A DNA stretch of 64,000 nucleotides from a bacterium (GTDB lineage Bacteria; Patescibacteriota; Minisyncoccia; Phycocordibacterales; VMGT01), in assembly GCA_030697645.1 (NCBI GenBank), contig JAUYPI010000003.1:318-64317 (forward strand), in the 5' to 3' direction. Numbering within the stretch: the first letter of the stretch is position 1; each line of letters starts with the position of its first letter. Positions 1-38,131 of this stretch are shown here, one piece after another. Below the pieces are notes generated by a model. The model saw only the letters and a program-made list of their open reading frames with translations, searched no databases and was not told the origin of the DNA. Position numbers and translations under genes: made by a program.

Positions 1-585
1 GACTTGAAAATTCCGTATTTTACTTTTTGGGGGACTTCGCTGGATAATGTTACCAAAAGGCCGTCGTCGGAAGTTAAATTTCTGCTGAATCTTTTTGAAC
101 GGGATTTTAAAAAACTGATTAAAGATAAAAAAATTTATCAAAATGGCGTGAAGGTTAATGTTTTTGGCCGCTGGGAGAAACTATTTCCTGAAAAAACCAA
201 AAAGGCCATAAAAGAGGCAATTGAAAAAACTAAAAATCATAAAAACTGTCAACTGACTTTTTTACTGGCTTATAGCGGCGTTGACGAAATGGCAAGCGCA
301 ATCCAGAGGATTGCTAAAATAAAAAATCAAAATGCAAAAATCAAAATTGATGAGAAATTGATTAAAAACAATCTTTGGACAAAGGATTTACCGGCCGTTG
401 ATTTAATGATTCGCACCGGCGGTGAAAGGCAAGGGTGGTCGCATTTTTCCAGCGGTTTGATGATGTGGGACATGGCCGACGCGCAATTTTATTTCACCAA
501 AAATCTTTTTCCGGATTTCTCGGTGGCGGAATTTAAAAAAGTTATAGCGCAATACAGCCAAACCAAGAGGAAAATGGGAGCATAA
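1..585 (+). CDS. uppS: isoprenyl transferase / undecaprenyl-diphosphate synthase, 5'-truncated at window edge
   Basis: Frame is open from position 1. The C-terminal UPPS signatures LLAYSG, IRTGGExR and WQ..FYF are present. Very AT-rich coding. Confidence 0.7.
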   Translation, partial: DLKIPYFTFWGTSLDNVTKRPSSEVKFLLNLFERDFKKLIKDKKIYQNGVKVNVFGRWEKLFPEKTKKAIKEAIEKTKNHKNCQLTFLLAYSGVDEMASAIQRIAKIKNQNAKIKIDEKLIKNNLWTKDLPAVDLMIRTGGERQGWSHFSSGLMMWDMADAQFYFTKNLFPDFSVAEFKKVIAQYSQTKRKMGA

Positions 586-661
586 AGCAGAGAGTCAGTT
601 TGACAAACTTTCCCGATCCTCTATCATTTATTATTAGAAACCTTGAAAGGGGGTGGGGACA

Positions 662-889
662 ATGAGAAGGATTCTCATCAAGGTTTGGCAGGGGGAGTTA
701 AGTCCCAAACAAGCTCTGAAGGAGCTTGAAAAAATGGGATTTAAATTTGCTGCCGGTAAAGAAAAGAGGGGGCTGGAGGTACTTACCGCCTTAAAAAAAA
801 AGGAGGTCAATGTTAATGAAGCCGAAGAGGAGATTGCGCTTCTTGAATGTGTTGGGTGCCAGAGAGAAAAGGATCTCTGCCAAATCTAG
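662..889 (+). CDS. hypothetical small protein (75 aa)
   Basis: ATG preceded by a GAAAGGGGGTGG RBS. TTGACA-17-TATCAT promoter-like pair at ~604-632. No recognisable domain. Confidence 0.35.
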   Translation: MRRILIKVWQGELSPKQALKELEKMGFKFAAGKEKRGLEVLTALKKKEVNVNEAEEEIALLECVGCQREKDLCQI

Positions 890-963
890 AATCTCCCTCA
901 AAAAGCCCGCCGAAATCTTTTAAAAAAATAAAAGAAAGTAAGCGGGCTCACCTATTTAGGTAG

Positions 964-1037
964 GCCGCGGTAGCTTAATGGTAAAGCAGGTGCCTGAAGA
1001 GCATCTGAAGGCAGTTCGATTCTGCCCCGCGGCACCA
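964..1037 (+). tRNA. tRNA-Phe (anticodon GAA)
   Basis: Hand-folded cloverleaf: acceptor GCCGCGG/CCGCGGC, D-arm TAGC..GCTA-like, anticodon stem GGTGC/GCATC with loop CTGAAGA, T-arm GGCAG-TTCGATT-CTGCC, discriminator A and encoded CCA. Confidence 0.85.
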
Positions 1038-1179
1038 CAAACGAACTGAAAGGTTTTTTAGAAGCCCAAAGGTGGGACGCGCGAAGCGCGTCCCACTGAT
1101 TTCCCCCCATTTTTCCAAACGAATTCGGAGTCCCGCCTTCGGCGGGACGGACTGTTTTTTCGCCAAGAAGCAGGTTCGA
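1038..1179. repeat. inverted-repeat copy 1 (3' flank of tRNA-Phe). Contains two terminator-like hairpins, GGGACGCGCGAAGCGCGTCCC and GTCCCGCCTTCGGCGGGAC followed by T6.
   Basis: Reverse complement is 108/108 identical to 2758-2865 and ~75% identical over the remaining ~34 bp. Explains the duplicated peptides in minus-strand ORFs 952..1200 and 975..1166. Confidence 0.8.
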
Positions 1180-1262
1180 AATCAGAAGCAATTTTGACAT
1201 AGTATTTGCTTTGAATACAAAAAGAATTTTTGTCCTTTTTTCAAAAGTGGTATACTAACTTT

Positions 1263-1358
1263 GCGCACAATTATTATTAGTAAATCAGCAGAAATGGTTG
1301 TGCTAGAACAATTTTGATTTACGTTGAAATTGTGCGCCTAGTACAACCATTTCTGCTT
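1263..1358 (+). promoter_or_regulatory. interleaved inverted repeats immediately upstream of the recombinase start (candidate recombinase binding/crossover or regulatory site)
   Basis: GCGCACAATT (1263-1272) ... AATTGTGCGC (1331-1340). CAGAAATGGTTGTGCTAG (1290-1308) ... CTAGTACAACCATTTCTG (1341-1358). A TGGTATACT -10-like box sits at ~1247. Confidence 0.35.
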
Positions 1359-1368
1359 TTGTAAATAT

Positions 1369-3102
1369 ATGTCACAAAAATTCTTTTTGTATGCTCGCAA
1401 GAGTACCGATGTCGAGGACAAGCAAGTTTTGAGCATTGATGCGCAAATTACGGAATTGCGCGCTTTCGCCAAAAATGAAAAGTTAGAAATCGTTGAGGAG
1501 TTTGTAGAAAAGCGTACGGCGAAAATTCCAGGTCGTCCCATTTTTGGCGAAATGATGAGGCGAATAGAGAAAGGTGAAGTGTCTGGGATTATCAGTTGGC
1601 ATCCCGATCGTTTGGCGCGCAATTCTGTGGACGGCGGACAGATTGTGTACTTTCTCGACATCGGAAACCTTGCGAGCCTCAAATTCCCTAGCCATTGGTT
1701 TGAAAACACGCCACAGGGCAAATTCTCGCTGTCTATGGCATTCGTACAAAGCAAATACTATGTTGATTCTCTTTCCGAGAACACGAAGCGTGGACTTCGC
1801 CAAAAAGTGAGAATGGGGATATTCCCAAGCCAAGCGCCAGTGGGTTATCTGAACGACAGTAGAACAAAGACGATAGTGGTGGAAAAGAAAAAATCTCGTA
1901 TCGTGCGCTTGGCTTTTGAGAAATACACGAAAGGAAATATGAGACTGGAAGATGTTTCAAACTTTTTGGCGAAGAACGGAATCAGTACGCGTTCCGGAAA
2001 GAGAATCTCAAAAACTAGAGTGTCTTTCATTTTGTCCAATCCGTTCTATGTCGGACTGTTTAACTACGCAAAAGAATTGCACGAAGGAAAACACGAGCCA
2101 ATCATTTCAAAGAAACTTTTTGATGAAGCACAAGAAATTTTGAAATCTCGCGGACAACCAGAGCGTAAACCACAAAACGAACCTCAACCTTTTTGCGGAC
2201 TTATTTCTTGTGCTTCTTGTGGAATGATGATAACTGGCGAACACAAATTCAAACGGCAGAAAAATGGAAATGTCCACGAGTATATCTACTATCACTGCAC
2301 AAAAAAGCGAAAAGTTTTTAAGTGTCCCGAATCTGCCGTTAGAGAAAAAGAATTGGATCGCCAGTTATCATCCCTAATCAAAAAAGTTTCTTTGCCCAAA
2401 GACTGGGCGGAGGAATTATTGAAAATGGCGAACAATGACCACAAAAATTCCGCCCAGTCTTTGACTGCTTGTGTGAAAGAGAAAGAGGAAAAGATTTCTT
2501 CTTTGTCGAAAAGGTTAGAGCGACTTCTTTCGGGTTATCTCGACCAAGATATTGAAAAGGAAATTTATCGTGTTGAAAAAGGAAAATTGATTTTGCAAAA
2601 GAAGTCGCTCGAAGAAGAAATCACTAATCTTTCACACAAGCAGAATGATTGGCTCGAACCGTTTACCGAGTGGCTGAAAGACGCACAATCATTGGACAAA
2701 ATTGCTTCTGATGATGACCTTTTTGCGAAAAAGGTCAAAGCCAAAGAAATCTTTGGCTCGAACCTGCTTCTTGGCGAAAAAACAGTCCGTCCCGCCGAAG
2801 GCGGGACTCCGAATTCGTTTGGAAAAATGGGGGGAAATCAGTGGGACGCGCTTCGCGCGTCCCACTTTCTGGCTTCCAAAAAGCCGTTTAGTTCGTTTGT
2901 GGTGCCGGAGGTGGGACTCGAACCCACAAGCCTTTCAGCATGCGATTTTGAGTCGCACGTGTTTGCCAATTTCACCACTCCGGCGCGAGGTTTTTTGCGG
3001 GCAGATCTACCAATGCCGCCACCCCGGCGCTGTGCAATGTACGGATTAGTGGTTTCAGTATATATGCTCCGGTGTATTTTTCAAACTCTCTATTCAAAGT
3101 AA
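1369..3102 (+). CDS. large serine recombinase (resolvase catalytic domain + recombinase domain + zinc ribbon + coiled coil)
   Basis: N-terminal YARKSTD..Q catalytic-serine motif. Zinc ribbon CGLISCASCG...YYHCTKK..KC. ORF runs with no stop through the right inverted repeat and antisense across tRNA-Leu, so the last ~115 codons are probably read-through or a fusion. Confidence 0.8.
   Translation: MSQKFFLYARKSTDVEDKQVLSIDAQITELRAFAKNEKLEIVEEFVEKRTAKIPGRPIFGEMMRRIEKGEVSGIISWHPDRLARNSVDGGQIVYFLDIGNLASLKFPSHWFENTPQGKFSLSMAFVQSKYYVDSLSENTKRGLRQKVRMGIFPSQAPVGYLNDSRTKTIVVEKKKSRIVRLAFEKYTKGNMRLEDVSNFLAKNGISTRSGKRISKTRVSFILSNPFYVGLFNYAKELHEGKHEPIISKKLFDEAQEILKSRGQPERKPQNEPQPFCGLISCASCGMMITGEHKFKRQKNGNVHEYIYYHCTKKRKVFKCPESAVREKELDRQLSSLIKKVSLPKDWAEELLKMANNDHKNSAQSLTACVKEKEEKISSLSKRLERLLSGYLDQDIEKEIYRVEKGKLILQKKSLEEEITNLSHKQNDWLEPFTEWLKDAQSLDKIASDDDLFAKKVKAKEIFGSNLLLGEKTVRPAEGGTPNSFGKMGGNQWDALRASHFLASKKPFSSFVVPEVGLEPTSLSACDFESHVFANFTTPARGFLRADLPMPPPRRCAMYGLVVSVYMLRCIFQTLYSK
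2758..2899. repeat. inverted-repeat copy 2 (3' flank of tRNA-Leu), partner of 1038-1179
   Basis: Direct sequence comparison; 108-bp perfect identity. Confidence 0.8.
2900..2984 (-). tRNA. tRNA-Leu (anticodon CAA), class II with long variable arm
   Basis: Minus-strand fold: acceptor GCCGGAG/CTCCGGC, 3-bp D stem, anticodon stem TGCGA/TCGCA with loop CTCAAAA, long variable arm, T-arm GTGGG-TTCGAGT-CCCAC, CCA encoded. Confidence 0.8.
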
Positions 3103-3107
3103 AGAAG

Positions 3108-3139
3108 GCCCCCTGTCGCAGAGGTCTGCGACAGGGGGC
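3108..3139. terminator. bidirectional hairpin terminator between recombinase and convergent ALDH gene
   Basis: GCCCCCTGTCGCAGAGGTCTGCGACAGGGGGC, a perfect 13-bp stem. Confidence 0.5.
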
Positions 3140-3149
3140 GAAGCGTGGC

Positions 3150-4742
3150 TTATGTTTGGACCAAAGGTGCCGCAGTGCGAATCGGCGCTATCGTGTCGAA
3201 AATAATTTCACGATGGGCGGTCCATGTTTCTCGTATTGCCTCGGGCGTCCCAATACCGGCGGCGCATGGGCCGCACGGGCCGAACCAGTGGTTTTGTGGC
3301 GCGCCGGTGGTTTTGGCTCGTAGGCCGACGTAGGTTGTTCCATTCGTCGTGTGTCCGAGCATGGTGTTCAGAAACCCGTGCTCATTTGAAACAATCGCCG
3401 CAGCGAGGCGTGGCTTAATGTGCTCAATGATGCGGAGCAAAAGCTCGATATGCTGGTCGCCGTAGGTAGTGATGATCTGTAAGGGCCCAAACAACTCTTT
3501 GGTAACCAGATCAAAATACTTGGGCAGCTCTAAGCGGCGAAACGGGACAAAGATCGCCGTCGGTTCGAACGCGCCATACGTATTCGGTATGGTGTGGTTT
3601 TTGAGCCGTTTGCCACCCCAGAGAATGTATGTGCCGCTTAATTTGAGGATTGCGGCGATGTGCGCCTCCACGTACTCGTTTGTCACTGAGAGCAGCGGGC
3701 CATTGGTGAGGTCGGAGAGCGTCCGTGTGCTCGCACGGATTTGCAGTGCGTCATAGAGCCGGTATGCCTTCTCGTGGACAAAGAGCAACGATTGCGCAGA
3801 GCATTTTTGCCCTGCCGCCGCGTATGCATCCTGATCACACTGCCAGGCGACGTATTCGAGCATGTCATCGCTCACATCGCGTCCTATGACTTTCGGGTTG
3901 AAGCCGGAGTCCTCGAGCTTCACTCTGCCTCGAAGCTTTCGCATGAGAGCCGCGCCGACCGCGGATGAACCAGTGAACTGGCACAGAGCAATGTGTTGCT
4001 CTGCGGCGTCAATAAACGCAGCCATATGCTCGCCGCTGCAATGGATGAGATCGACGTCGTGTGCGGACAAGCCACAGGCGAGCAAAAGCCGAATGAATTG
4101 TTCCGCAACGATTGAGACCTTCAGATCCGCCTTCAGGAGCGGTCGGTTTCCAGCGAGGAGCGCTCCGACGACTTGAAGTGCGGGGATCTCGAGCGGGAAG
4201 TTAAACGGCGTGATAATGACAACCGGACCAAGCGGCCAGCGGTACCCATTACTCTCCTGCCCCGCGTGATTGCCGGGAGTGGAAAATCCTCGGCCGAAAT
4301 GAAAACGAGGATTATCGCCGGCAAAATTGTAGAGAAAGTCTCTCGTTACCTCTACTTCCCCCATGCACTGCGGGAGTGATTTTGGCATGACACGCTGTAT
4401 GAGCCGCGTGAAGAAATATGCAATGTCGGGATCGGCAAGCGCTCTCGCCGCTCTACTGCATACGAGCCCGAGCCCGCGGTAGCGTTCCACGTTGCGAAAC
4501 GGATTGTGAAGACCGTAAGACGGACAGGACCGAAGGCCTTCTATAAAACTTTCGAACTTCACCGGAGGCGTGTCGGGGATGCTGATCATGCCTGCTCCGG
4601 TGAGCGGGTCCGGCATGAGGTGCGTGAGTGAATTTTCAACGAACCAGAACTTTCCTTCTGAGAGGTTCATGGCGAATGCGGTGCACCCTGTCGCTTTGTG
4701 CCGCATCGTATCCGGATCAAGTGTTGCAAACGATAGATCCAT
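3150..4742 (-). CDS. aldehyde dehydrogenase family protein (P5C-dehydrogenase-like)
   Basis: ALDH motifs: glycine-rich FTGSSAVG and catalytic-Cys context GQKCSAQS. 530 aa. ATG start. Confidence 0.75.
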   Translation of the reverse strand: MDLSFATLDPDTMRHKATGCTAFAMNLSEGKFWFVENSLTHLMPDPLTGAGMISIPDTPPVKFESFIEGLRSCPSYGLHNPFRNVERYRGLGLVCSRAARALADPDIAYFFTRLIQRVMPKSLPQCMGEVEVTRDFLYNFAGDNPRFHFGRGFSTPGNHAGQESNGYRWPLGPVVIITPFNFPLEIPALQVVGALLAGNRPLLKADLKVSIVAEQFIRLLLACGLSAHDVDLIHCSGEHMAAFIDAAEQHIALCQFTGSSAVGAALMRKLRGRVKLEDSGFNPKVIGRDVSDDMLEYVAWQCDQDAYAAAGQKCSAQSLLFVHEKAYRLYDALQIRASTRTLSDLTNGPLLSVTNEYVEAHIAAILKLSGTYILWGGKRLKNHTIPNTYGAFEPTAIFVPFRRLELPKYFDLVTKELFGPLQIITTYGDQHIELLLRIIEHIKPRLAAAIVSNEHGFLNTMLGHTTNGTTYVGLRAKTTGAPQNHWFGPCGPCAAGIGTPEAIRETWTAHREIIFDTIAPIRTAAPLVQT

Positions 4743-4918
4743 CTTTCTTCCTCCTCATATCTTACGAATGTGCGTGTTTTGCCGAGGCCGTCGGGCGGGG
4801 CGGTGTCGCTGTAGCTATATGAGCATAAAATCCCCTTGTGCGCAATAGACTTCTTCGGAAACTCCTTACATCGTATAAACGTGGTATAATGTAGACATGC
4901 CGCAAAACGAGTCTCGAT

Positions 4919-6121
4919 GTGCGAAGTCGTTTATCAGTCATCAGTCTAGCAAAAGTTTTTTCAAAGAATAAAAATATGAACTCGAAAGGCGCAATCACTA
5001 CCGTCGTAGTTGTTGGGGTCGTGCTGCTTGTCGGAGTGGCGGGCTTCCTTGCGTTGAGAGAACGGGCGTTGTCGCCCGTGCCAGCCCCTTCACCGACTCC
5101 AATGCCTACTCCAATCCCGACACCAACCCCTGCTCCGACACCTACTCCCATACCAACCCCAAAGCCTTCCCCATTACCTAAACTGGCGGCGTTTGAAGAC
5201 CAGATCACCCTCACGGTTGGCGAGAGAGTAAAATTTAGCGATGGCTTGGTCGTGACGCTTCTCGAAATAAACGATTCGCGTTGCCCAGCACCACCAGTAG
5301 TTTGCGTATGGGAGGGCGAACTGGCGCCGGTGTTGCGCGTCACGGGCGGCACTATAGGTAAGGAGGTCAAGGAAGTCCGCCTCGGAACCGTGCGCGCAAA
5401 GAGTGTCATTGAAAACGGCTATGGATTTGTATTGGATGGTGCAACCATGACGATGGCAACGGTCGCAGTAACAAGGAAAGAAGGAGACGTATCTTTGCAA
5501 GAAGGAGAGCGGGAGGGTCCGTTTTTACTCGAAAAAATTTATCCTGACCACGTCACCGGCCTCAATTTTCTGGAGTATCCTGTAGCGACCAACGTCGGGC
5601 ACCCTCTCGCTCTGCGGGTCGGCGAGAGCGCGAGTAACGGCTGCACCGTAACGCTCACCCTCACTCGCATAGAAGGCGAGACTGCCACGTTCAGCAAGGA
5701 AACGGATTTTGACCGGCCGTGCCCGATATGCCTTGCCGGCGCTACGCTGCTTGATACGCCATCGGGATCAGTGACAGTGAAAGATGTACACGTCGGCATG
5801 CCGATATGGACGACTGATATGAATGGCCATCGCGTCCCCGGAGTCGTGATCAAGACTTCGAAAACGCCGGTGCCGCTCACACACCTGATGACCCATTTAG
5901 TTTTGAGTGACGGGCGAGAACTCTTTGTCTCCTCCGGACATCCGACTACTGACGGGCGCGTCGTCGGCGACCTCAAGGCCGGCGATGTGTATGATAGTGG
6001 CGTCGTAGCGAGCGCTGAGCTCGCTCAGTACGGCGAGAGCGCAACGTATGACATCCTCCCCTCTGGAGAAACAGGCTTCTACTGGGCGAGCGGCATTCTC
6101 CTCGATAGTACGCTGTATTAA
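4919..6121 (+). CDS. membrane-anchored secreted protein with Pro/Thr-rich linker and C-terminal Hint (bacterial intein-like) domain
   Basis: N-terminal TM helix, (PTPxP)n linker. C-terminal block begins C-LAGATLLDT (intein block A) and LTHLMTHL (TxxH block B). Alternative start ATG at 4976 (MNSKG...). Confidence 0.6.
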   Translation: MRSRLSVISLAKVFSKNKNMNSKGAITTVVVVGVVLLVGVAGFLALRERALSPVPAPSPTPMPTPIPTPTPAPTPTPIPTPKPSPLPKLAAFEDQITLTVGERVKFSDGLVVTLLEINDSRCPAPPVVCVWEGELAPVLRVTGGTIGKEVKEVRLGTVRAKSVIENGYGFVLDGATMTMATVAVTRKEGDVSLQEGEREGPFLLEKIYPDHVTGLNFLEYPVATNVGHPLALRVGESASNGCTVTLTLTRIEGETATFSKETDFDRPCPICLAGATLLDTPSGSVTVKDVHVGMPIWTTDMNGHRVPGVVIKTSKTPVPLTHLMTHLVLSDGRELFVSSGHPTTDGRVVGDLKAGDVYDSGVVASAELAQYGESATYDILPSGETGFYWASGILLDSTLY

Positions 6122-6129
6122 AGCAGGTG

Positions 6130-6400
6130 CTTCGTACTGTGAATTACGAAATTGTAAGACATTCGGGTCCCCCGTTCCAGTCTGAATTTCGAAATTCCAA
6201 AAAACCCGTCTCCAAACAAATCTCAATACTTAAAATCCAATCTCCAAACACGACGTGCGTGTTTGGAGATTTGATGCATTGGAATTTGAAATTTGGTTGG
6301 AGCTTGTTGGTTGGAGCTTGGAATTTATTTGTTTCGGATTTTGTGTATCGAATGTTTACGTCGGCAATTTCGTTATTCACAGTAGGGTAGATTAGAGCGG
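6130..6400. repeat. palindromic element, family B (CCAAA/TTTGG-type arms, core CAAACACGACGTGCGTGTTTGG) flanked by GTGAATTACGAAATTG / CAATTTCGTTATTCAC inverted repeats
   Basis: Related copies at 26130-26290, 29600-29784, 35222-35350 and 57940-58100. Confidence 0.7.
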
Positions 6401-10431: not shown

Positions 10432-10632
10432 CGGGCAACGCTCTATGGTAACCACTCGCATCTTTTATTTTTGTGCTCGTGCTTCGGTGTTTGGAAATGG
10501 TGTCGCCTCGTTTACGAAAAACACAGAACTCGGCCTCCCTTTGGTCGGCCTCAGACAGCTGTGTTTTTCTACTCGGCTCGCCATTTCCTAAACACCTCTC
10601 GCAATGCACAAAAATAAAAGGCGCGAGTGGTT
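10432..10632. repeat. ~190-bp imperfect palindrome between secG stop and the SBP gene start
   Basis: Arms TAACCACTCGC(A/G)(T/C)CTTTTATTTTTGTGC...AACACAG mirror each other across a centre at ~10535. Confidence 0.5.
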
Positions 10633-10710
10633 ACGCTCTGTGGCGTTGCCGCACCCTATTTTCCGTGCGGTTTTTTTGTCCCGCTAGACTTCTCTCAAAA
10701 AGAAGAAGTC

Positions 10711-10947
10711 TTACTGATGCAGGAATACTGCCGTGAGCGCGGAGAGAAAGAAAAACGATGCGAAGACGATGGTGAGATAGAAGAGCGTTTTTTCAGCGCC
10801 GCGGCGGGTATGAAATCCCACATCCGTGCCAGCTCCGCCGAGCACTTCAGAGAGCCCTGCGCCAGTCTGCTGAAGCAGGATCGTTGCGATGAGGAGGACG
10901 GCGACACCAATCTGGAAATACGGCAATCCGGCCGTAAGCGCAGTCAT
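10711..10947 (-). CDS. secG: preprotein translocase subunit SecG
   Basis: 78 aa. Two TM segments with the LLQQTGAGLSEVLGGAG...RRGAEKTL pattern typical of SecG. Confidence 0.7.
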   Translation of the reverse strand: MTALTAGLPYFQIGVAVLLIATILLQQTGAGLSEVLGGAGTDVGFHTRRGAEKTLFYLTIVFASFFFLSALTAVFLHQ

Positions 10948-11056
10948 GTGTTTCTATTTATACCGCAGAGCGCCGTTTGTAGCAAACATTGACTTTAATA
11001 ATTTTTGTGGCGCAGACTACACATATGCGCACCCCACTCCACGGAAATGGGCCTGA

Positions 11057-11094
11057 CCCCATTTCGCCATTCTGACCCCATTTCGCCATTTCGA
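11057..11094. repeat. tandem direct repeat 2 x 19 bp (GACCCCATTTCGCCATT(C/T)(T/C))
   Basis: Seen directly. Confidence 0.6.
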
Positions 11095-11115
11095 CTAATT
11101 TTTTATCATAGTTGG

Positions 11116-12885
11116 TTATTTTTTAATTTTTTCAAGACCTTTTTTAAGATATGCTTCCATCCTCTTAACATTTTCCTGGAGTTGCTTCAGCGCATAGGCG
11201 TCATCAGCGCTCGTCGGAGTCTCGGACGCTTTGGATAGCCGCTCGACATCGTCCATAATCAATGTGAATATTTTTGTGACCTCGGATTCGACGAGCAACA
11301 CTCGTAAAGAAATTTTCTCCTGCCGTCTTTTATAAAACCAAATTCCTCCGCCAAACCCTGCTATGAGAATAAAGAGAAGAAGCACCGCCGCGCCGCCTTT
11401 CCCGAGCTCTAAGAACCCGATCTGAATAATCGGTTTACTCTTCACTTTGATCGGCGCTGAATCCACAATCAAACTCAACGCGCCTCGCGCATCTTTGCTT
11501 TGGGCTGTTGCGGTATAGCTCCCATTTTTGAATGCTTGGTCAATAGTAAACTCCCAATTCCCTTTCTCGTCGGTGCGTGCCGTCCCCTCTGCGACGAGCG
11601 CCTCTTTTCTATACACCCGAAGAAGGACGTTAATCGCCGGCAGGGCAGTCCCTTTTACGGTCAACCCTTTTTCTTCATCGGAAAACAACTCCTTGGTAAC
11701 AAAGGTAATGGTTGGAGACGCAATAGGAATCGTTTGGAGCGTCACGCTATCCTCAATGCCATTGTCCGCCTCGTCAACCGCTCGTACACTGATGTGCCGC
11801 GTACCGGGAGTTTGTAATGGCAAGGTAAAACTGCCGTCAAATTCTGCTGCGGGGATTTTCAGTACAGCTCCATCCCCTACTCGTATCTGATATTCTTTAA
11901 GACCGGATAGGGCGTCGCTCGTTCTAAATTGAAGTGTGGGAGCCGGGTTGTCGGTTGCCTCACCTTCAACAATGGAGAGCTCAAATCCAAGCGGGGGCTC
12001 GGTATCAATGGCTAAACGGTGATGTGCTGTCGGCCCCCAGCCGACATCGTTTCGAAAACGGATATGCAGATACCACACGCCATCCGAGAGTGAAGCAAAC
12101 GTTTTATTATCAAACAGACCTTCGGATCGTTCGGGCGGGATAGAGTTTGGATATTTATTGAGCGCCGTGCTCACGCCGGAGATATCAAGCGGCACATCCC
12201 ATCGTACCGTAAACTGCGCCACCAGATTATACCAGCGGTTCTCTTCGGGGTAGAGCGGAATTTTGAGCGTGGGCTTCAGGGGCAATTTCCCCGAAGGCAC
12301 GGGTTTCCGGACAATTTGTTCGGGCTCCGGAATTTTTTGTTGCACCGCCGGAGCCTCGGGAGGCTTTCGCTCTGCCTCCGGCGTCTTCGGGGTAACCCTC
12401 TCGGGAATGACCGCAATCGCCGCATCATGCACCTTTGATAAAATATTGGTTCCACTCCCGTCTGATGCGGTAATTGCGGCATCGCTCGCTGAGAGAGTGC
12501 CGGCGCCGCTCCCTTTGGCGGTGAATATAACTCTCAAAATCTGAATGGAGCTGCCGGAAGCGCCGTACGGCGTTCCGCCAACAAATGAAATGGCCCCGTC
12601 GGTATTAGAAAAGTTTGGCTCCTCAAGCCAAAAGCTGAATATCGAACCGGTTTTATCCACAGAAACGACTTCAAGAATATCTTTCGGAAAACGAAGGACT
12701 GCTTGCGCGGCATTGAGACTCACCCCCTCGCTGTCAGTTTTAAGATCGACGGTGAGTTTTTCTCCCATGCCAACTTCGGAACTCGGCGGCGCGATAAAAA
12801 GAGTTGCCGCTTCTGCAACGAAAGCACGCGACAAGGCGCCAAGCCCCCATGCCACGAGTACAATAAGTAAAATTTTAGTTTTCAT
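11116..12885 (-). CDS. cell-surface protein: signal peptide, N-terminal cohesin-like domain, Ig-like middle, C-terminal TM anchor
   Basis: Signal peptide. LRFPKDILEVVSV...GAISFVGG resembles a cohesin beta-sandwich. C-terminal hydrophobic helix plus KRRQEK stop-transfer. Confidence 0.5.
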   Translation of the reverse strand: MKTKILLIVLVAWGLGALSRAFVAEAATLFIAPPSSEVGMGEKLTVDLKTDSEGVSLNAAQAVLRFPKDILEVVSVDKTGSIFSFWLEEPNFSNTDGAISFVGGTPYGASGSSIQILRVIFTAKGSGAGTLSASDAAITASDGSGTNILSKVHDAAIAVIPERVTPKTPEAERKPPEAPAVQQKIPEPEQIVRKPVPSGKLPLKPTLKIPLYPEENRWYNLVAQFTVRWDVPLDISGVSTALNKYPNSIPPERSEGLFDNKTFASLSDGVWYLHIRFRNDVGWGPTAHHRLAIDTEPPLGFELSIVEGEATDNPAPTLQFRTSDALSGLKEYQIRVGDGAVLKIPAAEFDGSFTLPLQTPGTRHISVRAVDEADNGIEDSVTLQTIPIASPTITFVTKELFSDEEKGLTVKGTALPAINVLLRVYRKEALVAEGTARTDEKGNWEFTIDQAFKNGSYTATAQSKDARGALSLIVDSAPIKVKSKPIIQIGFLELGKGGAAVLLLFILIAGFGGGIWFYKRRQEKISLRVLLVESEVTKIFTLIMDDVERLSKASETPTSADDAYALKQLQENVKRMEAYLKKGLEKIKK

Positions 12886-12912
12886 GTTATGACTACACGT
12901 AACTCCTCACAC

Positions 12913-13003
12913 TCGTCATTGCGAGCGGAGCGAAGCAATCCAGAGTATAAGTCTATAGTCCCCCTGGATTGCTTCGTCGCTCCGCTCCTCGCAATGACGA
13001 AAT
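12913..13003. repeat. long hairpin element (36-bp stem GTCATTGCGAGCGGAGCGAAGCAATCCAG / CTGGATTGCTTCGTCGCTCCGCTCCTCGCAATGAC)
   Basis: A second copy at 14747-14867 brackets the dockerin gene. Confidence 0.7.
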
Positions 13004-13026
13004 TTGCCAAAGTTTAGTAAATACCT

Positions 13027-14706
13027 TCATCGTTTTCGTATATTTCGAACGAAAATACTAAAATCGGAAATATCAATGGCGCCGTCTTCATTCAAATCAA
13101 TTAATCGGCGAGACCCCGCGTCTTTTGAGGCCCATCGAGACAGAAAAATACTCCAGTCCTTAATATCAACCCGACCGTCGCCGGAGAAATCCGTTTTGGG
13201 AACGGCAAGGCGCGACACGACTAAGTTTTTTGTTGGTGAAAAATCGCTTTCTTTCTCCTCTTCTTTCTCCCCCCGAGAGAGCAGTTGCTTCACCCGTACC
13301 CGATGCGAGCCAAATTCAAGCATGCTGGTCGGGGCCGCTACCGTATAGGAACCGTCGTCTGCTACTCTGACTTCTTTTTTAATTGTACCATCCATTTCAA
13401 CGACGACACTGCTTCGCGGCGACGCGAATCCGGTAATAGTTGCCTCATCCCCTCGCGTCACCACGGAACGGACGAAAGCAACGGTCGGTGGAACAACGAT
13501 GTCTTTTTCCACCAAATCGTCGGCCAGCGTATTCACATTAAAAAACTTCGTTTGCGTCGTCCGGCCTTCTTTGTCTTTAATCAGAAGGCCGAAGCTATGC
13601 TGACTTTTTAAGACTCCCACAAAACTCGTATTAAAAGAACCGTCATCGTTTGTAATTACGTCTTGACTCACGATTGTCTCGCGGTGGCTATCCTTATCAA
13701 CAACGAACACCTGTGCACCCGGGAAGGCCTTCCCGGAAAAACTTATCGTTGTAGGCGTCACTCCCCCGGATATCGGCTGAGAAGGGGGTGGCTGAATTGT
13801 TAAAGTCGGACATGCTTCATAGGCATCAAGAGTAGCAGCGTCGTTGGTAACACGAAAGCTATAGGTTCGGCCGAGTGGGACATCGTCTGCGGCTTTCAAT
13901 GACCATTCGTATTCCGTGGATTGGCCCTTGAGCATGCTCTGGGCTGACGCTGGATTTGTTGACTCAAGAATCTTTCCAGCGACAAAATTGAGGCCGCCTA
14001 CCAGCTGTTGCGTAGTCGGAGCACTATCATCAAAATTCGTAGACGCCATGAGATTAAAACTGGCGCTTGCGGGAGTAATAATTGCCCAACTGCCTGTAGT
14101 ACAATCGATTCCTTCTTTAAATTCTACACGAGGCGAGATAGTACCATCAGCGGTGCCGAGTTTGATGGCAAAACGAAGACGAAACGGCGTCCCCTGGGGT
14201 ACATTTGTAATGTTCGTATTCTGGCTTACATTTTCAGCCCCATAACCAGTGTCGGTGATTTCAGATCCGTCATCATCTCGAAACCAAAATTTCTGTTGAT
14301 TCCACGATGGTGTTCCACCACCGCCGCCACCACCACTACCTGTTGAAAAGATTGTGGTTTGTGTAGAACTCACATCGAGCCCAGTTGTTTCTGTATCGGA
14401 GAGCGAAAGTGTTACGGTTTCGGCCACGAGATCATTGATTTGTCGCGTGCCAACCCCATTCACGATATCCACCACACCTCCACCGGTTGCCGAACCGCCC
14501 GCAACAAGCGTGACGTCGCTCTGGTATCCGGTATCTACCTGATTATTCTGTTTTCGCGCTTCAACGGTGACCGTAACCGGCACGCCCGCGGTACTATCAT
14601 CGGGATTAACAATAAAAAATTTTACTGCTACGCTCGGAGGAGCGGCTACTGCCGCGACCGGTAGTAAACAGAAAAGCAACAAAAATGGTACAAAAGGCAA
14701 TCGCAT
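13027..14706 (-). CDS. secreted protein with C-terminal type I dockerin domain
   Basis: Signal peptide. C-terminal duplicated Ca-binding segments DFSGDGRVDIKDWSIF and DLNEDGAIDISDFSIF. Gly/Thr-rich linkers. Confidence 0.65.
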   Translation of the reverse strand: MRLPFVPFLLLFCLLPVAAVAAPPSVAVKFFIVNPDDSTAGVPVTVTVEARKQNNQVDTGYQSDVTLVAGGSATGGGVVDIVNGVGTRQINDLVAETVTLSLSDTETTGLDVSSTQTTIFSTGSGGGGGGGTPSWNQQKFWFRDDDGSEITDTGYGAENVSQNTNITNVPQGTPFRLRFAIKLGTADGTISPRVEFKEGIDCTTGSWAIITPASASFNLMASTNFDDSAPTTQQLVGGLNFVAGKILESTNPASAQSMLKGQSTEYEWSLKAADDVPLGRTYSFRVTNDAATLDAYEACPTLTIQPPPSQPISGGVTPTTISFSGKAFPGAQVFVVDKDSHRETIVSQDVITNDDGSFNTSFVGVLKSQHSFGLLIKDKEGRTTQTKFFNVNTLADDLVEKDIVVPPTVAFVRSVVTRGDEATITGFASPRSSVVVEMDGTIKKEVRVADDGSYTVAAPTSMLEFGSHRVRVKQLLSRGEKEEEKESDFSPTKNLVVSRLAVPKTDFSGDGRVDIKDWSIFLSRWASKDAGSRRLIDLNEDGAIDISDFSIFVRNIRKR

Positions 14707-14746
14707 AGTGGGGCTAACTTTGGATCACACGCAAAAGCACTGGTAT

Positions 14747-14867
14747 TCCGTCATTGCGAGCGGAGCGAAGCAATCCAGAATATCATCTGTGGCAAGACTT
14801 GTCTGAAGAGGTTTAATCCTGGATTGCTTCGTCACTCCGCTCCGCTGCGTTCCTCGCAAAGACGAAC
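14747..14867. repeat. long hairpin element, second copy of the GTCATTGCGAGCGGAGCGAAGCAATCCAG inverted pair
   Basis: Seen directly. Confidence 0.7.
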
Positions 14868-14902
14868 GTGAGTCAGAACCATGCTTTTGCGTATGATCCG
14901 TA

Positions 14903-15304
14903 CTAACTCTTGACCGGCGGAGTTTTTACCGCTTTTTTCCCCTCCAGATACGCTTTGGTTTTTTCAATCACCTCCTCAATCGGGTGCTGGGATTTTACAA
15001 AATAATCATCCGCGCCGAGCGCGAGCGCCCGTTTGATTTGTGTGTCATCGCCAAGATTGGAAAGCACGATAATCGGAATCAGCTTCCAGTCCGGATTTTT
15101 CTTCACTTCTTCCAACACATAAAAGCCGTCCTTTTTGGGCATCAAGAGATCGAGCAGAATGATATTCGGCTTCATCTTTTTTATATGCTCCACCGCTTCT
15201 TCTCCGTCTGCCGCCGTATCCACACTACAGCCCTCGGATTCGAGATTATCCTTCAGCGCCCGCATCAAAAACTCTTCATCTTCAACGATTAATACTTTGC
15301 TCAT
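14903..15304 (-). CDS. response regulator, receiver domain only (CheY-like)
   Basis: DD...D...T...K receiver pattern. 133 aa. Confidence 0.85.
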   Translation of the reverse strand: MSKVLIVEDEEFLMRALKDNLESEGCSVDTAADGEEAVEHIKKMKPNIILLDLLMPKKDGFYVLEEVKKNPDWKLIPIIVLSNLGDDTQIKRALALGADDYFVKSQHPIEEVIEKTKAYLEGKKAVKTPPVKS

Positions 15305-15308
15305 ACGT

Positions 15309-16850
15309 TTAGGTTGTAGATTTTAGCTTCGGAACGCGTAAATAAAATATCGACCCTTTGCCGGGCTCCGATTCAAGGAGAATTTTCGCCCCGATTTTCT
15401 CCGCGAGCATTGAGGCGACATATAGGCCCAACCCAGTGCCATCGGGCTTGAATTTTTTGGCATTGGACGCGCGGTAAAATTTTTCAAAGATGCGCCCCTG
15501 CTCGTCGTTGGGTATCCCGATGCCGCTGTCTTTCACGGAAAATACCACACTCCCTGTTTCTTCGGTGACGTCAAAAAATATATCCTGCCCCCGCTCGGAA
15601 TAATTGATTGCGTTTACGATAAACGTCTCAAGAATGGAGCGCAGCATCTCCGCGTCAGTCTCGACAACGGTCGTGGCGAGATTTTTCACGTCCGCGTGAA
15701 GCCGCACCCCTCTCTGCTCGGCGACAGGCGCCGTCGCGAGAGAAACGTCTCGAGCGAGGCGCGCAAGGGAAATCGCTTCTGTTTTCATCGCGACGTCGCC
15801 GCCCTCGATACGTAAGGCGTTCAGCATGTCAAAGACGATTTTGAGCGCGCGCTCGTTCAATTGGTAGATTTGATCAAGATATTCTTGCTGTTTTTGATTT
15901 ACAGTACCGAGTATCTTTCGATCGAGCGTTTCAACGAACCACTTGATGCCGGAGAGCGGCGTTCGCAGTTGGTGCGAGGCAAGAGCAAGAAATTCAGTTT
16001 TCATGCGATCAATTTCCTTTTCTTTGGTAATATCGCGAAATACTTCAACGGCGCCTATAATTTTTCCGTCTAAAGTGACGGGGGTGACAATACCCGACGC
16101 AGGAAACCTGGTTTTATCTTTGCGAATATAATACCAACTACTACTACTACTACTAGTAGTAGTAGTTCCCACCAATGCCTGCGTTATTGCTCTTTCTTGA
16201 GGCGGCACCAAATTCCCGGCTTCATCTTCTTGTGGCACTACTTCAACCATTCGTTTCCCCGCGATTTCCTTTTCACCCCAGCCGGTGAGCGCTTCAAAAG
16301 CTTTACTGATGAAAAGAATATTTCCTTCCTTATCGACTGCCACAAGTCCCTCGCCGATGCCTGACAAAATTGCCTCATCTTTGGCTTTGGTATTATCCAG
16401 CGCTTCTTTTTCAACTTGAAGGTCTTCGAAGACGTTTTTGGCGGCCGTCCTTGCATTTTCCAAATCCTCCTCTATCTGCTTTCGGTCAGTGATATTTTGC
16501 AACACTGCCACAAAAAATCCTTTTTGGGGACTATACGCCGAAACCAAAAACCACATCGATAACGGTTTAACGTATATTTCGAACCTCTTTGATTTTCCAG
16601 TTAAATAAAGCCGGCCGTAAATCTCAAACAATTCAGGATTAGACGCGCGAATTCCCGGAATTATCTCTGATATTTTCTTTCCTGTAACATTTTTCAATCC
16701 CGTCAGATTTTCATAATTTTTATTAACCCTTAAATGGATCCAATCTATCAGGTTTCCTTGCATATCAAAAATCATTTGGCAGTAAGCCAAACCGTCAAGC
16801 ATATTATCAAAAAGCGACTCATAAAAGACGCTGGGATCTTCGGGTTTCAT
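15309..16850 (-). CDS. PAS-domain sensor histidine kinase
   Basis: HisKA H-box (ASHQLRTPL) and HATPase G-boxes (GTGLGLYV). Lower GC. Contains the (CTA)5(GTA)4 triplet palindrome at 16136-16165. Confidence 0.85.
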   Translation of the reverse strand: MKPEDPSVFYESLFDNMLDGLAYCQMIFDMQGNLIDWIHLRVNKNYENLTGLKNVTGKKISEIIPGIRASNPELFEIYGRLYLTGKSKRFEIYVKPLSMWFLVSAYSPQKGFFVAVLQNITDRKQIEEDLENARTAAKNVFEDLQVEKEALDNTKAKDEAILSGIGEGLVAVDKEGNILFISKAFEALTGWGEKEIAGKRMVEVVPQEDEAGNLVPPQERAITQALVGTTTTSSSSSSWYYIRKDKTRFPASGIVTPVTLDGKIIGAVEVFRDITKEKEIDRMKTEFLALASHQLRTPLSGIKWFVETLDRKILGTVNQKQQEYLDQIYQLNERALKIVFDMLNALRIEGGDVAMKTEAISLARLARDVSLATAPVAEQRGVRLHADVKNLATTVVETDAEMLRSILETFIVNAINYSERGQDIFFDVTEETGSVVFSVKDSGIGIPNDEQGRIFEKFYRASNAKKFKPDGTGLGLYVASMLAEKIGAKILLESEPGKGSIFYLRVPKLKSTT

Positions 16851-16921
16851 TTTTTGTCGGCCATTTTTATGATTACCATTGTGATTTTTCCGGTTCCATT
16901 CTTGCCGTTGCCGTTTTTAAC

Positions 16922-17485
16922 TCACTGCCGCTTCAGAATTTCAATTTCTTTTTTAAGCTCCGCCATTTTCAATTCTCTACCAACCATACTTTTATTTGTC
17001 TTCTCTAATTCTTTAATTTTATCAGTAAGTTCTTCTGTTTGTTCTGCCACTTTTTTCTCCAGTTCATTTGTATAATCGTCTAATTTTATTTCAAGCTCCT
17101 TTCTGACAGTTATGTCTTCAATGGCTAATATGATCAATTGCACCGAATCTATCTGCATGGCGTTGAGCAGCATTATTTTTTGCCCGATTGTTTCAAACTC
17201 ATGCCTAACCTCATAATCTTTTACAACTTTTTTATTAGGCAAAATGTCTTCCAGCAATTTTTTCAATTTAGGAATATTCCATTGGCCATTTCCTAATCCA
17301 TAAAGAGATTTGGCCTCTGTTTGTTTTTGCGAGACCTGAAAGGTTTGGTAAAAAACTGGGTTTGCCGAAATCACCACAAGATTAGAGTCAAGAATTAAGA
17401 ATGCCTCTCTGGAAACATCTACCAGTGTTTTCATGTAATGCAAGGCAAGTTCTTTGTTGTCTAATATATTTTTATTATTTTCCAT
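16922..17485 (-). CDS. PAS domain plus coiled-coil protein (possibly the detached N-terminal part of the downstream kinase)
   Basis: PAS fold followed by a heptad-rich C-terminus. The ORF track starts at TTG 17503; ATG at 17485 is preferred. Confidence 0.55.
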   Translation of the reverse strand: MENNKNILDNKELALHYMKTLVDVSREAFLILDSNLVVISANPVFYQTFQVSQKQTEAKSLYGLGNGQWNIPKLKKLLEDILPNKKVVKDYEVRHEFETIGQKIMLLNAMQIDSVQLIILAIEDITVRKELEIKLDDYTNELEKKVAEQTEELTDKIKELEKTNKSMVGRELKMAELKKEIEILKRQ

Positions 17486-17761
17486 ATTTTTAGTTTTAAT
17501 CAAACAATTCCTCGCAGCTCTGCTGCGAGGTCGTACAGAACTCGAACGAAGTCACAGCCAGAAAAAAATTATGAGCGAAGCTCCTTTAGATACCTCGGAG
17601 CAGAGCTCCGAGGTAGTTCATTTTACTTTTTAGCTAAGTTTATTTCGACCTTTATGCCCCCGTTAGAAGTACCGGCTTTCTATTTTCCAATAGGGCGATA
17701 AAACAAAAACACGCGGCCAAAAAGCAGCATGTAAAAACTTTCCTCTAAACGGAGGATCAGA

Positions 17762-17786
17762 GAGAGAGAGAGAGAGAGAGAGACGA
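17762..17786. repeat. (GA)12 dinucleotide microsatellite
   Basis: Seen directly. Confidence 0.9.
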
Positions 17787-18045
17787 AACCCGTGCCAAAT
17801 TTTGATATCCAGTGAGCATAAGTTTATGATACCATCAACTTGAAATGTTACCCACATCATTGTGGATAAAATCTTTATTCCCCGTGTTATACGGCGGGTC
17901 AATGTAGATGACATCCATCTTGCCTTTGTGGGTATAGTTGAGCACCGAGAGGGCGTGGTAATTCAGTTATACCGTCGCAGCGTGCTGCACGGTTCGTGAT
18001 TGTTACCGTATATTTCACGAAGAAGATAAAAGAAGGTGAAATCGT

Positions 18046-26129: not shown

Positions 26130-26290
26130 AAAAAAAAACAGTAAAAAATTTCAAGCTCCAACCAACAAGCTCCAAACAAATTTCAAATTCCAATGCATCA
26201 AATCTCAAACACGCACGTCGTGTTTGGAAATTGGATTTTGAATATTGAGATTTGTTTGGAGACGGGTTTTTTTGGAATTTGGAAATTAGT
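26130..26290. repeat. palindromic element, family B
   Basis: Produces the spurious MHQISNTHVVFGNWIL peptide in ORF 26193..26384. Confidence 0.7.
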
Positions 26291-29601: not shown

Positions 29602-29784
29602 AGCGAATTGGGAACCCACAAGCTCCAAACCAAATAAATTCCAAGCTCCAACCAACAAGTTCCAAACAAACTTCAAATTCCAATGCATCAAATCTCAAAC
29701 ACGCACGTCGTGTTTGGAAATTGGATTTTGAGCATTGAGATTTGTTTGGAGACGGGTTTTTTGGAAATTGGAAATTCGTATCGT
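29600..29784. repeat. palindromic element, family B
   Basis: Explains the spurious N-terminus of ORF 29683..30240. Confidence 0.7.
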
Positions 29785-30520: not shown

Positions 30521-31014
30521 GATTTTACGTATGAGTAGATTGACTAAACTACACAAAAAGCGGAGGAGCTGACACTCGTCTTTGGTAGACTGTGTTCGTC
30601 CCATCCGCTCAAGGTGAGCGGTTTTTGTTTTGTCCGAACGATTGGACGATTGATTCTTTGTCAACAAAATAGGCCCCACGGCAAGAACGCATGGAGCGTT
30701 TTTAATTTCGATATTTTGAAATTTTGATATATCGAGGTGCCGGTGGCGGGCTAAAGCAAAAAGAATCAAATTAAGCAGGTAAAACCGTGCTTCGCACGGA
30801 CATTTCGAAATATCGATATATCGAAATTTCCGCGCGGAGCGCGGTAGCGGTTTTTCCGTTCCTCACAGGAATGGAAGCGCATATGGTGGATGCCTAGACT
30901 CCACATGGCGATGAAGGACGCGGCCTGGCGGCGATACGCTTCGGGGAGGTGCCTGGTAACCTTTGATCCGAAGATTTCCGAATGGGGAAACCCCTTTGCA
31001 TAAAACGCATTGAT

Positions 31015-31391
31015 CTGCCTGTATGTTTTGACTTTTGATTTTTGACAAAAAACCGACTGTCTGACACCTGACGTCAGAGCAGTCGGCCGCTTCGAACTCG
31101 CCCTCGATCCTTAACTTACATAGAGGATGAGGGAGAATGCGAGTAGTAAAAGCAATGCTGCGAGCATATACCAATATTTGTTGTTTTTATTGAGCTCGCG
31201 ATTTGCAGCCCCCAGCGCTTGCGCGGGCACTTCCTGCTCTTCCGTTCTGAGTAAGGAATGGGGATGCCTGTTATTGTGCATGGCATTGCTCCTAATCTAA
31301 GGTAAGAACTTTAAACTCACCCCGTGAGCTTACGTCACGAATATTTTATACTATAAGTATATTTTTGTCAAGAGTCAAAACATACAGGCAG
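31015..31391 (+). other. IVS-like insertion 1 in 23S (helix-9 region), AT-rich
   Basis: 18-bp terminal inverted repeats CTGCCTGTATGTTTTGAC / GTCAAAACATACAGGCAG. Shares internal TTGTCAAGAGTC with insertion 2. Carries ~57-codon ORFs on both strands; the antisense one ends in a hydrophobic helix. Confidence 0.6.
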
Positions 31392-31812
31392 AGGCATACC
31401 CAGGGAAGTGAAACATCTCAGTACCTGGAGGAAAAGAAAACAACCGTGCTTCGCACGGACATTTCGAAATATCGATATATCGAAATTTCCGCGCGGAGCG
31501 CGGCCATTCCCTTAGTAGCGGCGAGCGAAACGGGAGGAGCCTAAACCGTGCGCAGCACGGACATATCGATATTTCGAAATTTCGATATTTCCGCGCTGCG
31601 CGCGGTGTTGTACGGCAACGGCGTAGTTTAACTAGAGAAGTTACAAAGTGGTTTGTTAGCGGAATCTGCTGGAAAGCAGAGCCCCAGCGGGTAATAGCCC
31701 CGTACGCGAAAGCACGCCACCTTCTTTGCTGTTGTTCGTGAGTACCTCGGGACATGAATAGCCCGAGGGAATCTGGCAGGACTAACTGCCAAGGCTACAT
31801 ACGTGTGGAGAT

Positions 31813-31849
<37 letters not shown>

Positions 31850-32109
31850 CAGCCCGGTGAGGGCGGTGAAATAGACCTGAAACCATATGCGTACAAGGAG
31901 TCGGAGCTGCCGCACCTCATTGCATTCGGTGCGGACATTTCGATATTTCGAAATATCGATATATCGAAATGTCCACCGCGCCGAGTGTAGCGAGGTGCGG
32001 CGGTCACGGCGTGCCTATTGAAGAATGAGCCAACGAGTTGTCGTTTGTTGCCCGTCTAACCGCTTGTCGCGGGAAGGCATAGGGAAACCGAGTGTTAAAA
32101 GCGCGATCG

Positions 32110-32503
32110 CCTGCTCATATTTTTGGATTTTTATTAGTGGAAGTTAACTGAAACCGCCACGTTCATGTTAAACGTAGCGGTTTATCCCTGAGTCCAAGGA
32201 AGAGCGTCTTCCTCACCTTGTGAGGAAGAACCAGATTTTATCTGGAATGAGCTTTTGAAGGAAAGAGCCTGGAACAAGGAAATAAGCAAGTGCAATACAG
32301 ATCAAAAGCGGCCAATATATCCACCTTGGGACGAAATACCCGAGAAGATAGAAAACACCAGCAACGATACCAATAATGATATGACCTTTAAGGTTCATTT
32401 TCGTCTCCAATCTCGAATGAGGTGCCAGGGGGATGGGGGGTTCTCTATACAACAAATTAGTATAAATGTATTAATTTGTCAAGAGTCCAAAAATATGAGC
32501 AGG
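32110..32503 (+). other. IVS-like insertion 2 in 23S (helix-45 region, ~E. coli 1170), AT-rich
   Basis: Terminal inverted repeats CCTGCTCATATTTTTGGA / TCCAAAAATATGAGCAGG. Internal TTGTCAAGAGTC. Antisense ORF 32213..32455 encodes a small protein with two TM helices. Confidence 0.6.
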
Positions 32504-35667: not shown

Positions 35668-35713
35668 AAATGTGACCAGTGCGGCCAACCAGCAGGGAAG
35701 GAGAAAATTACCA

Positions 35714-37205: not shown

Positions 37206-37264
37206 CCATATCGCCGGCGGTGTTCGGCACCTCGATGTCGGCTCACCTCATCCCGGGGCTGGAG

Positions 37265-38098: not shown

Positions 38099-38131
<33 letters not shown>

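Follow-up and report, generated by a model that had tools for sequence, protein, structure and literature searches.

Why does the left end of this contig differ so clearly in base composition from the DNA that follows it? The window examined in this work is the whole stretch of 64,000 nucleotides analysed from contig JAUYPI010000003.1, part of a Patescibacteria metagenome-assembled genome (MAG). Its first 3.1 kb hold the 3' part of uppS (undecaprenyl diphosphate synthase), a small open reading frame (ORF), tRNA-Phe and a recombinase gene next to tRNA-Leu, and an earlier note had described them as AT-rich and as either a horizontally acquired island or a chimeric assembly joint. We find that the compositional break is real and explained: it marks where a mobile recombinase unit ends, and DNA of an AT-rich lineage lies beyond this unit. 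A second question is then raised: were the two flanks of the unit joined in a cell or by the assembler?

The compositional break and the recombinase unit

The GC content of positions 1-3100 is 42.4%, against 53.7% for 3101-64000. The break is real, but the contrast is only about half of the one reported at first, 35-40% with 60-65%. These 3.1 kb are the lowest stretch of that length in the window (mean of such stretches 53.4%, sd 3.5, z about -3.2), and 15.1-18.2 kb, with 42.8%, is nearly as low. The step occurs at about 2750-2900, where the GC content measured over 300 nt rises from 0.43 (2551-2850) to 0.52-0.55 (2701-3300). This is the position of the right inverted repeat of the unit and of tRNA-Leu, and the earlier note had placed the break correctly at the recombinase/tRNA junction. 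Among the features it had called AT-rich, uppS (37.3%), the recombinase gene (41.6%) and the small ORF (45.1%) bear this out, but tRNA-Phe, with 58%, does not; the repeat arm at 2758-2899 has 54%.

Positions 1033-2904 are one copy of a compact mobile unit of 1.87 kb, in which the gene of a large serine recombinase (LSR) lies between terminal inverted repeats of 147 nt. The left arm (1033-1179, plus strand) and the right arm (2904-2758, minus strand), each read inward from its tRNA end, are 95.2% identical; a repeat search returned an inverted pair of 166 nt (1014-1179 and 2758-2923, 92% complementary), which we trimmed to the part shared by the family. The unit is enclosed by two convergent tRNA genes, both found by ARAGORN and Rfam: tRNA-Phe(GAA) at 964-1037 on the plus strand and tRNA-Leu(CAA) at 2900-2984 on the minus strand, the latter with a promoter-like site at 3084-3057. 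Each arm starts with CACCA, the final five bases of its tRNA; at tRNA-Phe these bases (1033-1037) double as the start of the left repeat, and at tRNA-Leu they overlap the end of the right one. Inward from there follow a small hairpin, H0, a palindrome of 25 bp, H1, and a second hairpin, H2. H1, with the sequence GTGGGACGCGC-GAA-GCGCGTCCCAC, lies at 1072-1096 and 2841-2865, which makes two matches in the window where none is expected. It is part of a 55-nt core (1072-1126 and 2811-2865), which is identical in both arms and in L001 and hardly varies among five other copies; L001 is a contig of the sister MAG (GCA_034376905.1), an independent assembly of this strain. H2 (1130-1160 on the plus strand, 2807-2789 on the minus strand) is a GC-rich hairpin followed by a run of T and scores as an intrinsic terminator, placed to halt transcription from tRNA-Phe on the left and from tRNA-Leu on the right.

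The single ORF between the two tRNAs runs on the plus strand from 1369 to 3102, downstream of a spacer with short inverted repeats (1180-1368), and the unit supplies its codons 1-510 (to 2898). It contains, in this order, the domains Resolvase (PF00239, 3.5e-20), Recombinase (PF07508, 1.7e-17) and Zn_ribbon_recom (PF13408, 3.6e-08), and its translation includes FFLYARKSTDVED, the putative nucleophile motif of the YARKST type, and HPDRLARNS, a candidate DRLAR motif. An exact-protein look-up gave no record for this ORF. Its final 140 nt are occupied by the right arm, no stop codon is present inside the unit, and the frame continues antisense through tRNA-Leu to 3102. The GC-rich backbone then starts (3108-4742, minus strand) with a terminator hairpin (3108-3139) and an aldehyde dehydrogenase (ALDH) gene (3150-4742, 55.6% GC), and this start is 99.7-100% identical in two other assemblies. 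We also observed that the recombinase start codon is bracketed by a perfect 19-nt inverted repeat, ATACAAAAAGAATTTTTGT and ACAAAAATTCTTTTTGTAT (1215-1233 and 1374-1392). L001, whose recombinase copy is a different one, has the same pair there at a shorter distance, and the pair may be a translational or autoregulatory element.

A family of units at the ends of tRNA genes

Is the unit peculiar to this contig? A protein search with the recombinase gave 5883 homologues, of which the best 120 are 68-94% identical; the few of these 120 that have a source name were all named Patescibacteria. With a copy in a Nomurabacteria MAG the protein shares 96% identity. A scan of one genome per species yielded 80 loci. 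In about 55 of them a tRNA on the opposite strand begins exactly 2 nt past the equivalent of codon 510, and the abutting tRNAs are of at least nine types (Leu, Val, Arg, Gly, Met, Lys, Tyr, Glu and Thr). The inverted repeat of about 147 nt is present in nearly all loci with enough sequence, with one arm in the 3' end of the ORF; its second arm precedes the start codon by about 190 nt. Alignments by tblastn reach codon 509-510 in most loci, the ORF never stops within the unit, and the tails of the proteins are translated antisense tRNA (..GLEP..) or other flank. The repeat-bounded unit of 1.87 kb is found alone in about 70 other genomes. The GC content of its recombinase gene is 38-47% (mean 40.9%, 47 copies), whereas the host flanks range from 31 to 52% (r = 0.26). 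What recurs is a bounded sequence at 80 loci, in many sites and hosts and with a composition independent of the host, as holds for mobile elements in general. The 80 loci give no picture of vertical descent at a single constant tRNA with a composition like that of the host. Since the copies stay at about 41% GC across hosts, the step at 2750-2900 is the right boundary of the unit against tRNA-Leu and the chromosome of 54% GC, and the AT-richness of 1038-2757 is the element's own composition, because the recombinase gene is steady in hosts of differing GC.

The two arms are 95-100% identical in most loci, including the one-sided loci, which have a tRNA at only one end; arm divergence is greatest in the two-sided loci, where each end has its own tRNA (81-92% identity). 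The unit in the window is flanked by tRNAs on either side, and so are those of the loci L021 and L022. At one-sided loci the left arm adjoins a conserved promoter, TTGAAA-N17-TACAAT, placed to initiate at the first base of the repeat. This promoter forms the outermost part of a further inverted-repeat pair (209-315 nt, 98-100% identical), which brackets a variable cargo of 1.8-3.3 kb and ends on both sides in an outward-facing copy of the promoter (L008 1479-3663, L031 615-3791, L062 1230-3665 and others). The cargo encodes LD-carboxypeptidase, cytidylyltransferase, OMP decarboxylase, GTP cyclohydrolase II, zeta toxin, an HD protein and pilin. In L031, a cargo module of 37% GC and a unit of 42% GC together form a bounded AT-rich island, to the left and right of which the genome has 51-52% GC. 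The window contains no promoter/IR1 motif of the kind found next to units elsewhere. Of about 40 protein tails that could be classified, at least 10 run into the antisense promoter motif and not into an antisense tRNA, from which it follows that the unit can face either way with respect to its flanks. In IMG/VR no relative of the recombinase was found, so a phage vector is not supported.

Could the element also complete the tRNA that it abuts? According to a rough classification by regular expression, CCA is encoded in 47 of 59 tRNAs fused to a unit and in 27 of 89 other tRNAs of the same loci, and in five other contigs, where a tRNA-Phe identical to ours has no unit, four of the five copies lack an encoded CCA. 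Taken together, these counts indicate that the terminal CCA of the unit directly follows tRNA position 73. The element supplies the terminal CCA of the tRNA and leaves the tRNA itself intact.

The structure of the repeat was compared in 42 arms. Double changes in H1 preserve pairing in 5 of 8 predicted pairs, and by our own count its 11 stem pairs comprise 432 Watson-Crick cells, 4 G-U and 10 A-C. A DNA palindrome, or a site that functions on both strands, would be expected to show this pattern. A purely RNA hairpin was considered for H1 and rejected, because the pairing is Watson-Crick on both strands with almost no G-U. In H0, on the other hand, a bias towards G-U in the tRNA-sense strand (24 versus 4) hints that the tRNA trailer is structured RNA as well. 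We likewise rejected the idea that the outer 34 nt of the repeat derive from the target, as other genomes have an identical outer sequence at tRNA-Gly, tRNA-Leu(TAA) and tRNA-Tyr. In one further locus, L050, the 3-nt loop of H1 is flipped (TTC for GAA) in one arm only and the remainder of the arm is identical. This flip may be the footprint of recombination or of template switching within the palindrome.

Origin of the left flank and of the join

Outside the unit, on its left, are uppS (1-585, plus strand; Pfam Prenyltransf 6.6e-43, TIGR00055), which continues past the edge of the window, the small ORF of 78 aa (653-889, plus strand), which has no family match and is preceded by a promoter-like site at 600-627, and tRNA-Phe. 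By codon and tetranucleotide usage this DNA is not native to the backbone. The GC content at third codon positions (GC3) is 0.40 in uppS, compared with 0.57-0.82 in 21 typical backbone genes. The tetranucleotides of 1-963 correlate with those of the backbone at r 0.25 and with those of L083, a relative of 38% GC, at 0.89; after normalisation for GC the values are 0.31 and 0.72. Both measures side with the break. Beyond the source MAG, the nearest uppS proteins are 73-78% identical, the closest of them 77-78%, and those of their contigs that were fetched are uniformly 35-38.5% GC, with uppS embedded among other tRNAs. The earlier note had reasoned that equally AT-rich uppS orthologues in close relatives would speak against a recent transfer. 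The orthologues are indeed equally AT-rich, but the genomes around them are AT-rich as well, at a uniform 35-38% GC, which reverses the outcome and argues that the uppS of the window is not native to a backbone of 54% GC. L088, a relative of the backbone with an ALDH that is 87% identical, has about 56% GC throughout (uniformly 52-64%). The left 1 kb or so looks like DNA of a Paceibacteria-type lineage with 35-38% GC.

Neither the full-length uppS (P0121) nor the small ORF, which was looked up in two versions, has an exact-protein record. Among protein clusters at 90% identity, that of uppS contains this MAG only and that of the neighbouring ALDH contains both MAGs, and the NCBI protein clusters hold no uppS accession from the sister MAG assembly. 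A metagenome scan for the exact tRNA-Phe returned five contigs, none of them with uppS, the small ORF or the unit and all with unrelated contexts, which shows only that this tRNA sequence is common to AT-rich and GC-rich lineages.

How, then, did such different flanks come to lie on one contig? The arms of the window are identical over their inner 109 nt (1072-1180) and differ at 7 of their 34 outer nt, next to the tRNAs. The outer part of the right arm is of the type found in the most similar units at tRNA-Gly, tRNA-Leu(TAA) and tRNA-Tyr elsewhere, and the outer part of the left arm resembles a type that is paired elsewhere with a different inner sequence. L001 is 99.7% identical to the window from 10539 to 2697 (7.8 kb). 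It shares tRNA-Leu and the outer repeat as far as position 2812 of the window and then continues with the other inner type and the start of a different recombinase gene; its recombinase copy reads away from tRNA-Leu, in the orientation opposite to that in the window. If the two types are called A and B, the left arm of the window (B-like outer, A inner) and L001 (A outer, B inner) are reciprocal hybrids, with the crossing in the 55-nt core that contains H1. At other loci, too, mismatches between the arms fall in blocks on one side of the core. Because the inner arms are identical and the outer parts match different variants, we infer that the flanks were joined via two different copies of the unit, probably somewhere in the invariant core. 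A simple flip would not account for this, since the window and L001 carry different recombinase copies at tRNA-Leu. For both arms, metagenomes were scanned for exact matches to the tRNA end together with the outer repeat, and none was found; the search for an empty site among ALDH relatives led to L088, which has no tRNA-Leu at that place.

We slightly favour the view that this join was made by the assembler and put its probability at roughly one half. A repeat shared among co-occurring Patescibacteria genomes and longer than the inserts of short-read libraries could give rise to a misjoin, and the uppS side would then come from another organism. In 59 of the 80 MAG loci the contig ends in or at the unit, several contig overlaps equal common k-mer sizes (55, 77, 99, 119 and 141), and several contigs contain nothing but the unit (about 1.8-2.0 kb). 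A Logan contig from run SRR13727529, L002, matches positions 2876-6221 of the window at 100% identity, and to us its end at 2876, inside the repeat, points to several copies of the outer repeat in that sequencing run. The contig of the sister MAG continues differently inside the repeat, as described above. These contig ends, the stop of L002 and the divergence of L001 strengthen the option of a chimeric joint that had been raised at first. We also count towards an artefact that the AT-rich, odd side of the join carries a housekeeping gene, that the sister MAG is represented in the ALDH cluster but not in that of uppS, and that arms diverge most in the two-sided loci.

Several points weigh against an assembler join. 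The evidence for it comes from assembled sequences. In this contig the unit was crossed, a step that an assembler would normally refuse at a branching repeat, and AT-rich DNA beside units can be genuine, as the module of L031 in a genome of 51% GC illustrates. The hybrid arms themselves are probably real molecules, because the 55-nt core in which they cross is spanned by single reads. Further AT-rich stretches lie well inside the GC-rich DNA of the same contig, at 10.5-18 kb and 62.8-63.3 kb. In addition, about 9.6 kb of the source contig, which has 73,640 bp, are beyond the window, and we place them to its left by inference.

Could the junction be a real one? We regard this as an alternative only slightly less probable than a join by the assembler. 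The unit would then lie at the chromosomal tRNA-Leu, and the DNA with uppS and tRNA-Phe would be cargo of a composite island that extends to the left, or would have arrived by recombination between two copies of the unit; this could have been an inversion or a cassette exchange at the core, brought about by the recombinase or by homologous recombination. The variable cargo modules that units usually have on their left, metabolic genes included, favour a real junction, as do the bounded AT-rich island of L031, the occurrence of the unit in both orientations and the other AT-rich segments inside the contig. The reciprocal hybrids are also in its favour, with a crossing inside a core that is within the reach of single reads, and so are the arm mismatches that many loci show in blocks on one side of H1. 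However, the left neighbour of the unit in the window is a tRNA and not the promoter/IR1 motif that borders the cargo elsewhere. Moreover, uppS is a single-copy housekeeping gene, of which a foreign extra copy or replacement would be unusual in a streamlined genome, and the sister MAG is without this junction. A bolder form of the idea, which seems to us unlikely, is that the unit is a docking or exchange device at tRNA 3' ends, that its recombinase acts on the H1 core to flip or swap the intervening DNA, that Patescibacteria trade cassettes, uppS included, across lineages divergent in GC, and that the window is a real product of this trade.

Apart from a chimera and a real recombination product or island, we consider all other readings, even when taken together, improbable. 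One of these is that 1-3100 is a single classical tRNA-integrated island with its integrase at the edge and with direct-repeat attL and attR, and it has very little probability. The earlier note had proposed an island bounded by tRNA genes, and what stands of this is a mobile element between tRNAs, with a recombinase that adjoins a tRNA and an AT-rich composition. The element is the 1.87-kb unit only, however, and since uppS, the small ORF and tRNA-Phe are outside it, the 3.1 kb are not one island. A repeat search of 1-5000 found no direct repeat of a tRNA 3' end; the sole long repeat is the 166-nt pair, which is inverted and brackets the recombinase gene only. The two tRNAs are different genes in convergent orientation, and the same unit recurs alone in so many other genomes. 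Hardly credible, finally, is a natively heterogeneous genome in which nothing is foreign and the organism's own uppS and neighbouring genes just happen to be AT-rich: the per-gene GC content in the window does span 33-64%, but the GC3 of uppS falls outside the range of the backbone genes, the GC-normalised tetranucleotides favour an AT-rich lineage, L088 is uniformly GC-rich and the recombinase shows the composition of its family in every host.

At about three quarters of the MAG loci with this single element of 1.9 kb, the contig ends there, and where the element is traversed it can link the DNA of different organisms. Patescibacteria MAGs that span the unit, including this contig of 73.6 kb, need to be checked before claims on gene content, synteny or horizontal gene transfer are based on them.

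Comparison with known systems and other features of the window

To which known system is the unit related? Its recombinase has the same order of resolvase, recombinase and zinc-ribbon domains as the LSRs represented by the integrase of Listeria phage A118, SPbeta SprA/YokA and the phiC31/Bxb1 type, and it matches the PHROG 95 'integrase' family at 4e-79. The best solved relatives, SprA and the A118 integrase, are distant (PDB E-value 2e-9, of the order of 1e-9), and the models for SCCmec Ccr and XisF score far below the NCBIfam cut-offs (CcrB 131.8 against 900, XisF 97.4 against 375). In contrast to the phage LSRs, the unit comes without a phage or large cargo, its ends are inverted repeats of 147 nt and not short attL and attR in direct order, and its ORF lacks a stop codon of its own. 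Tn4451 and Tn5397, with TnpX and TndX, likewise have an LSR as their only mobility enzyme and use many different sites. These elements are 6-20 kb in size and have cargo, short imperfect end repeats, a circular intermediate and GA-centred sites. The unit described here differs in being 1.87 kb, with the recombinase alone, long inverted repeats and a fixed junction at tRNA position 73/74.

The invertases Hin, Gin, Cin and Pin share with the unit a recombinase gene inside an inverted-repeat segment, of which both orientations were seen here across loci, and a fixed promoter outside the unit that faces the segment. Those enzymes, however, are small serine recombinases of about 190 aa with a C-terminal helix-turn-helix (HTH), 26-bp sites and a Fis enhancer, whereas our protein is an LSR of at least 510 aa, and the match to PHROG 125 'DNA invertase' covers its residues 2-261 only, the catalytic part. 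Like the insertion sequences (IS) with terminal inverted repeats, the unit has one gene, occurs in many copies and sites and breaks assemblies, but the classical IS with such repeats rely on DDE transposases. IS607, which lacks terminal repeats, encodes a small serine recombinase whose HTH is N-terminal; its model NF033518 reached 25.2 bits, where the cut-off is 110. For the unit, a target-site duplication was not observed. Islands that target tRNAs also abut tRNA 3' ends and leave the tRNA intact, but they duplicate this end as direct repeats and mostly use tyrosine integrases, whereas the ends of the unit are inverted and its far end usually abuts the conserved promoter-like motif or a second, convergent tRNA. 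The architecture therefore fits none of the islands with attL and attR, the Hin/Gin invertases, IS607 or, judged by general knowledge, Tn4451/Tn5397. It looks undescribed; the literature searched contains no description of such an element, although absence there is not proof of novelty. The arrangement is unfamiliar in that a one-gene LSR unit combines long inverted ends with a fixed junction at tRNA position 73/74, an ORF without its own stop and near-identical copies across several candidate phyla. It would add a compact member specific for tRNA ends to the recombinases of interest for genome engineering, and it may help to account for gene exchange among streamlined symbionts.

With regard to the remainder of the window, the earlier note had listed four further AT-rich pockets. 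Two of these agree with the measurements, 15300-17500 (42.4% GC, with an ORF of 33% at 16922-17503) and 62790-63275 (41.4%). The pocket at 35160-35960 is only mild (44.1%), and 53750-54700, with 50.6%, is not AT-rich. The region from 10500 to 18000 is a second compositionally foreign stretch within GC-rich DNA. It carries genes for two proteins with Ig-like domains (49-51% GC) and a PAS histidine kinase (46%), as well as the ORF at 16922-17503, which has 193 aa and a GC3 of 0.35, and there is neither a recombinase nor an H1 palindrome nearby. A hypothetical protein of 400 aa is encoded at 4919-6121; the C-terminal third is Hint/intein-like by eye (CLAG...SSGHP...), with no Pfam match at 1e-3. 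The 23S rRNA gene (30862-38336) spans 7.5 kb and hence carries several insertions, among them a group I intron at 35306-36029, and it is followed by the 5S rRNA at 38607-38712. Lastly, an intergenic repeat of about 150-170 nt, with copies 72-95% identical, occurs at about 6184-6390, 10469-10613, 26143-26287, 29617-29777, 55437-55614 and 57957-58093. It is confined to the GC-rich part, is common to the relative L088 of 56% GC and could represent either a miniature mobile element or a repeat with a regulatory role in that lineage.

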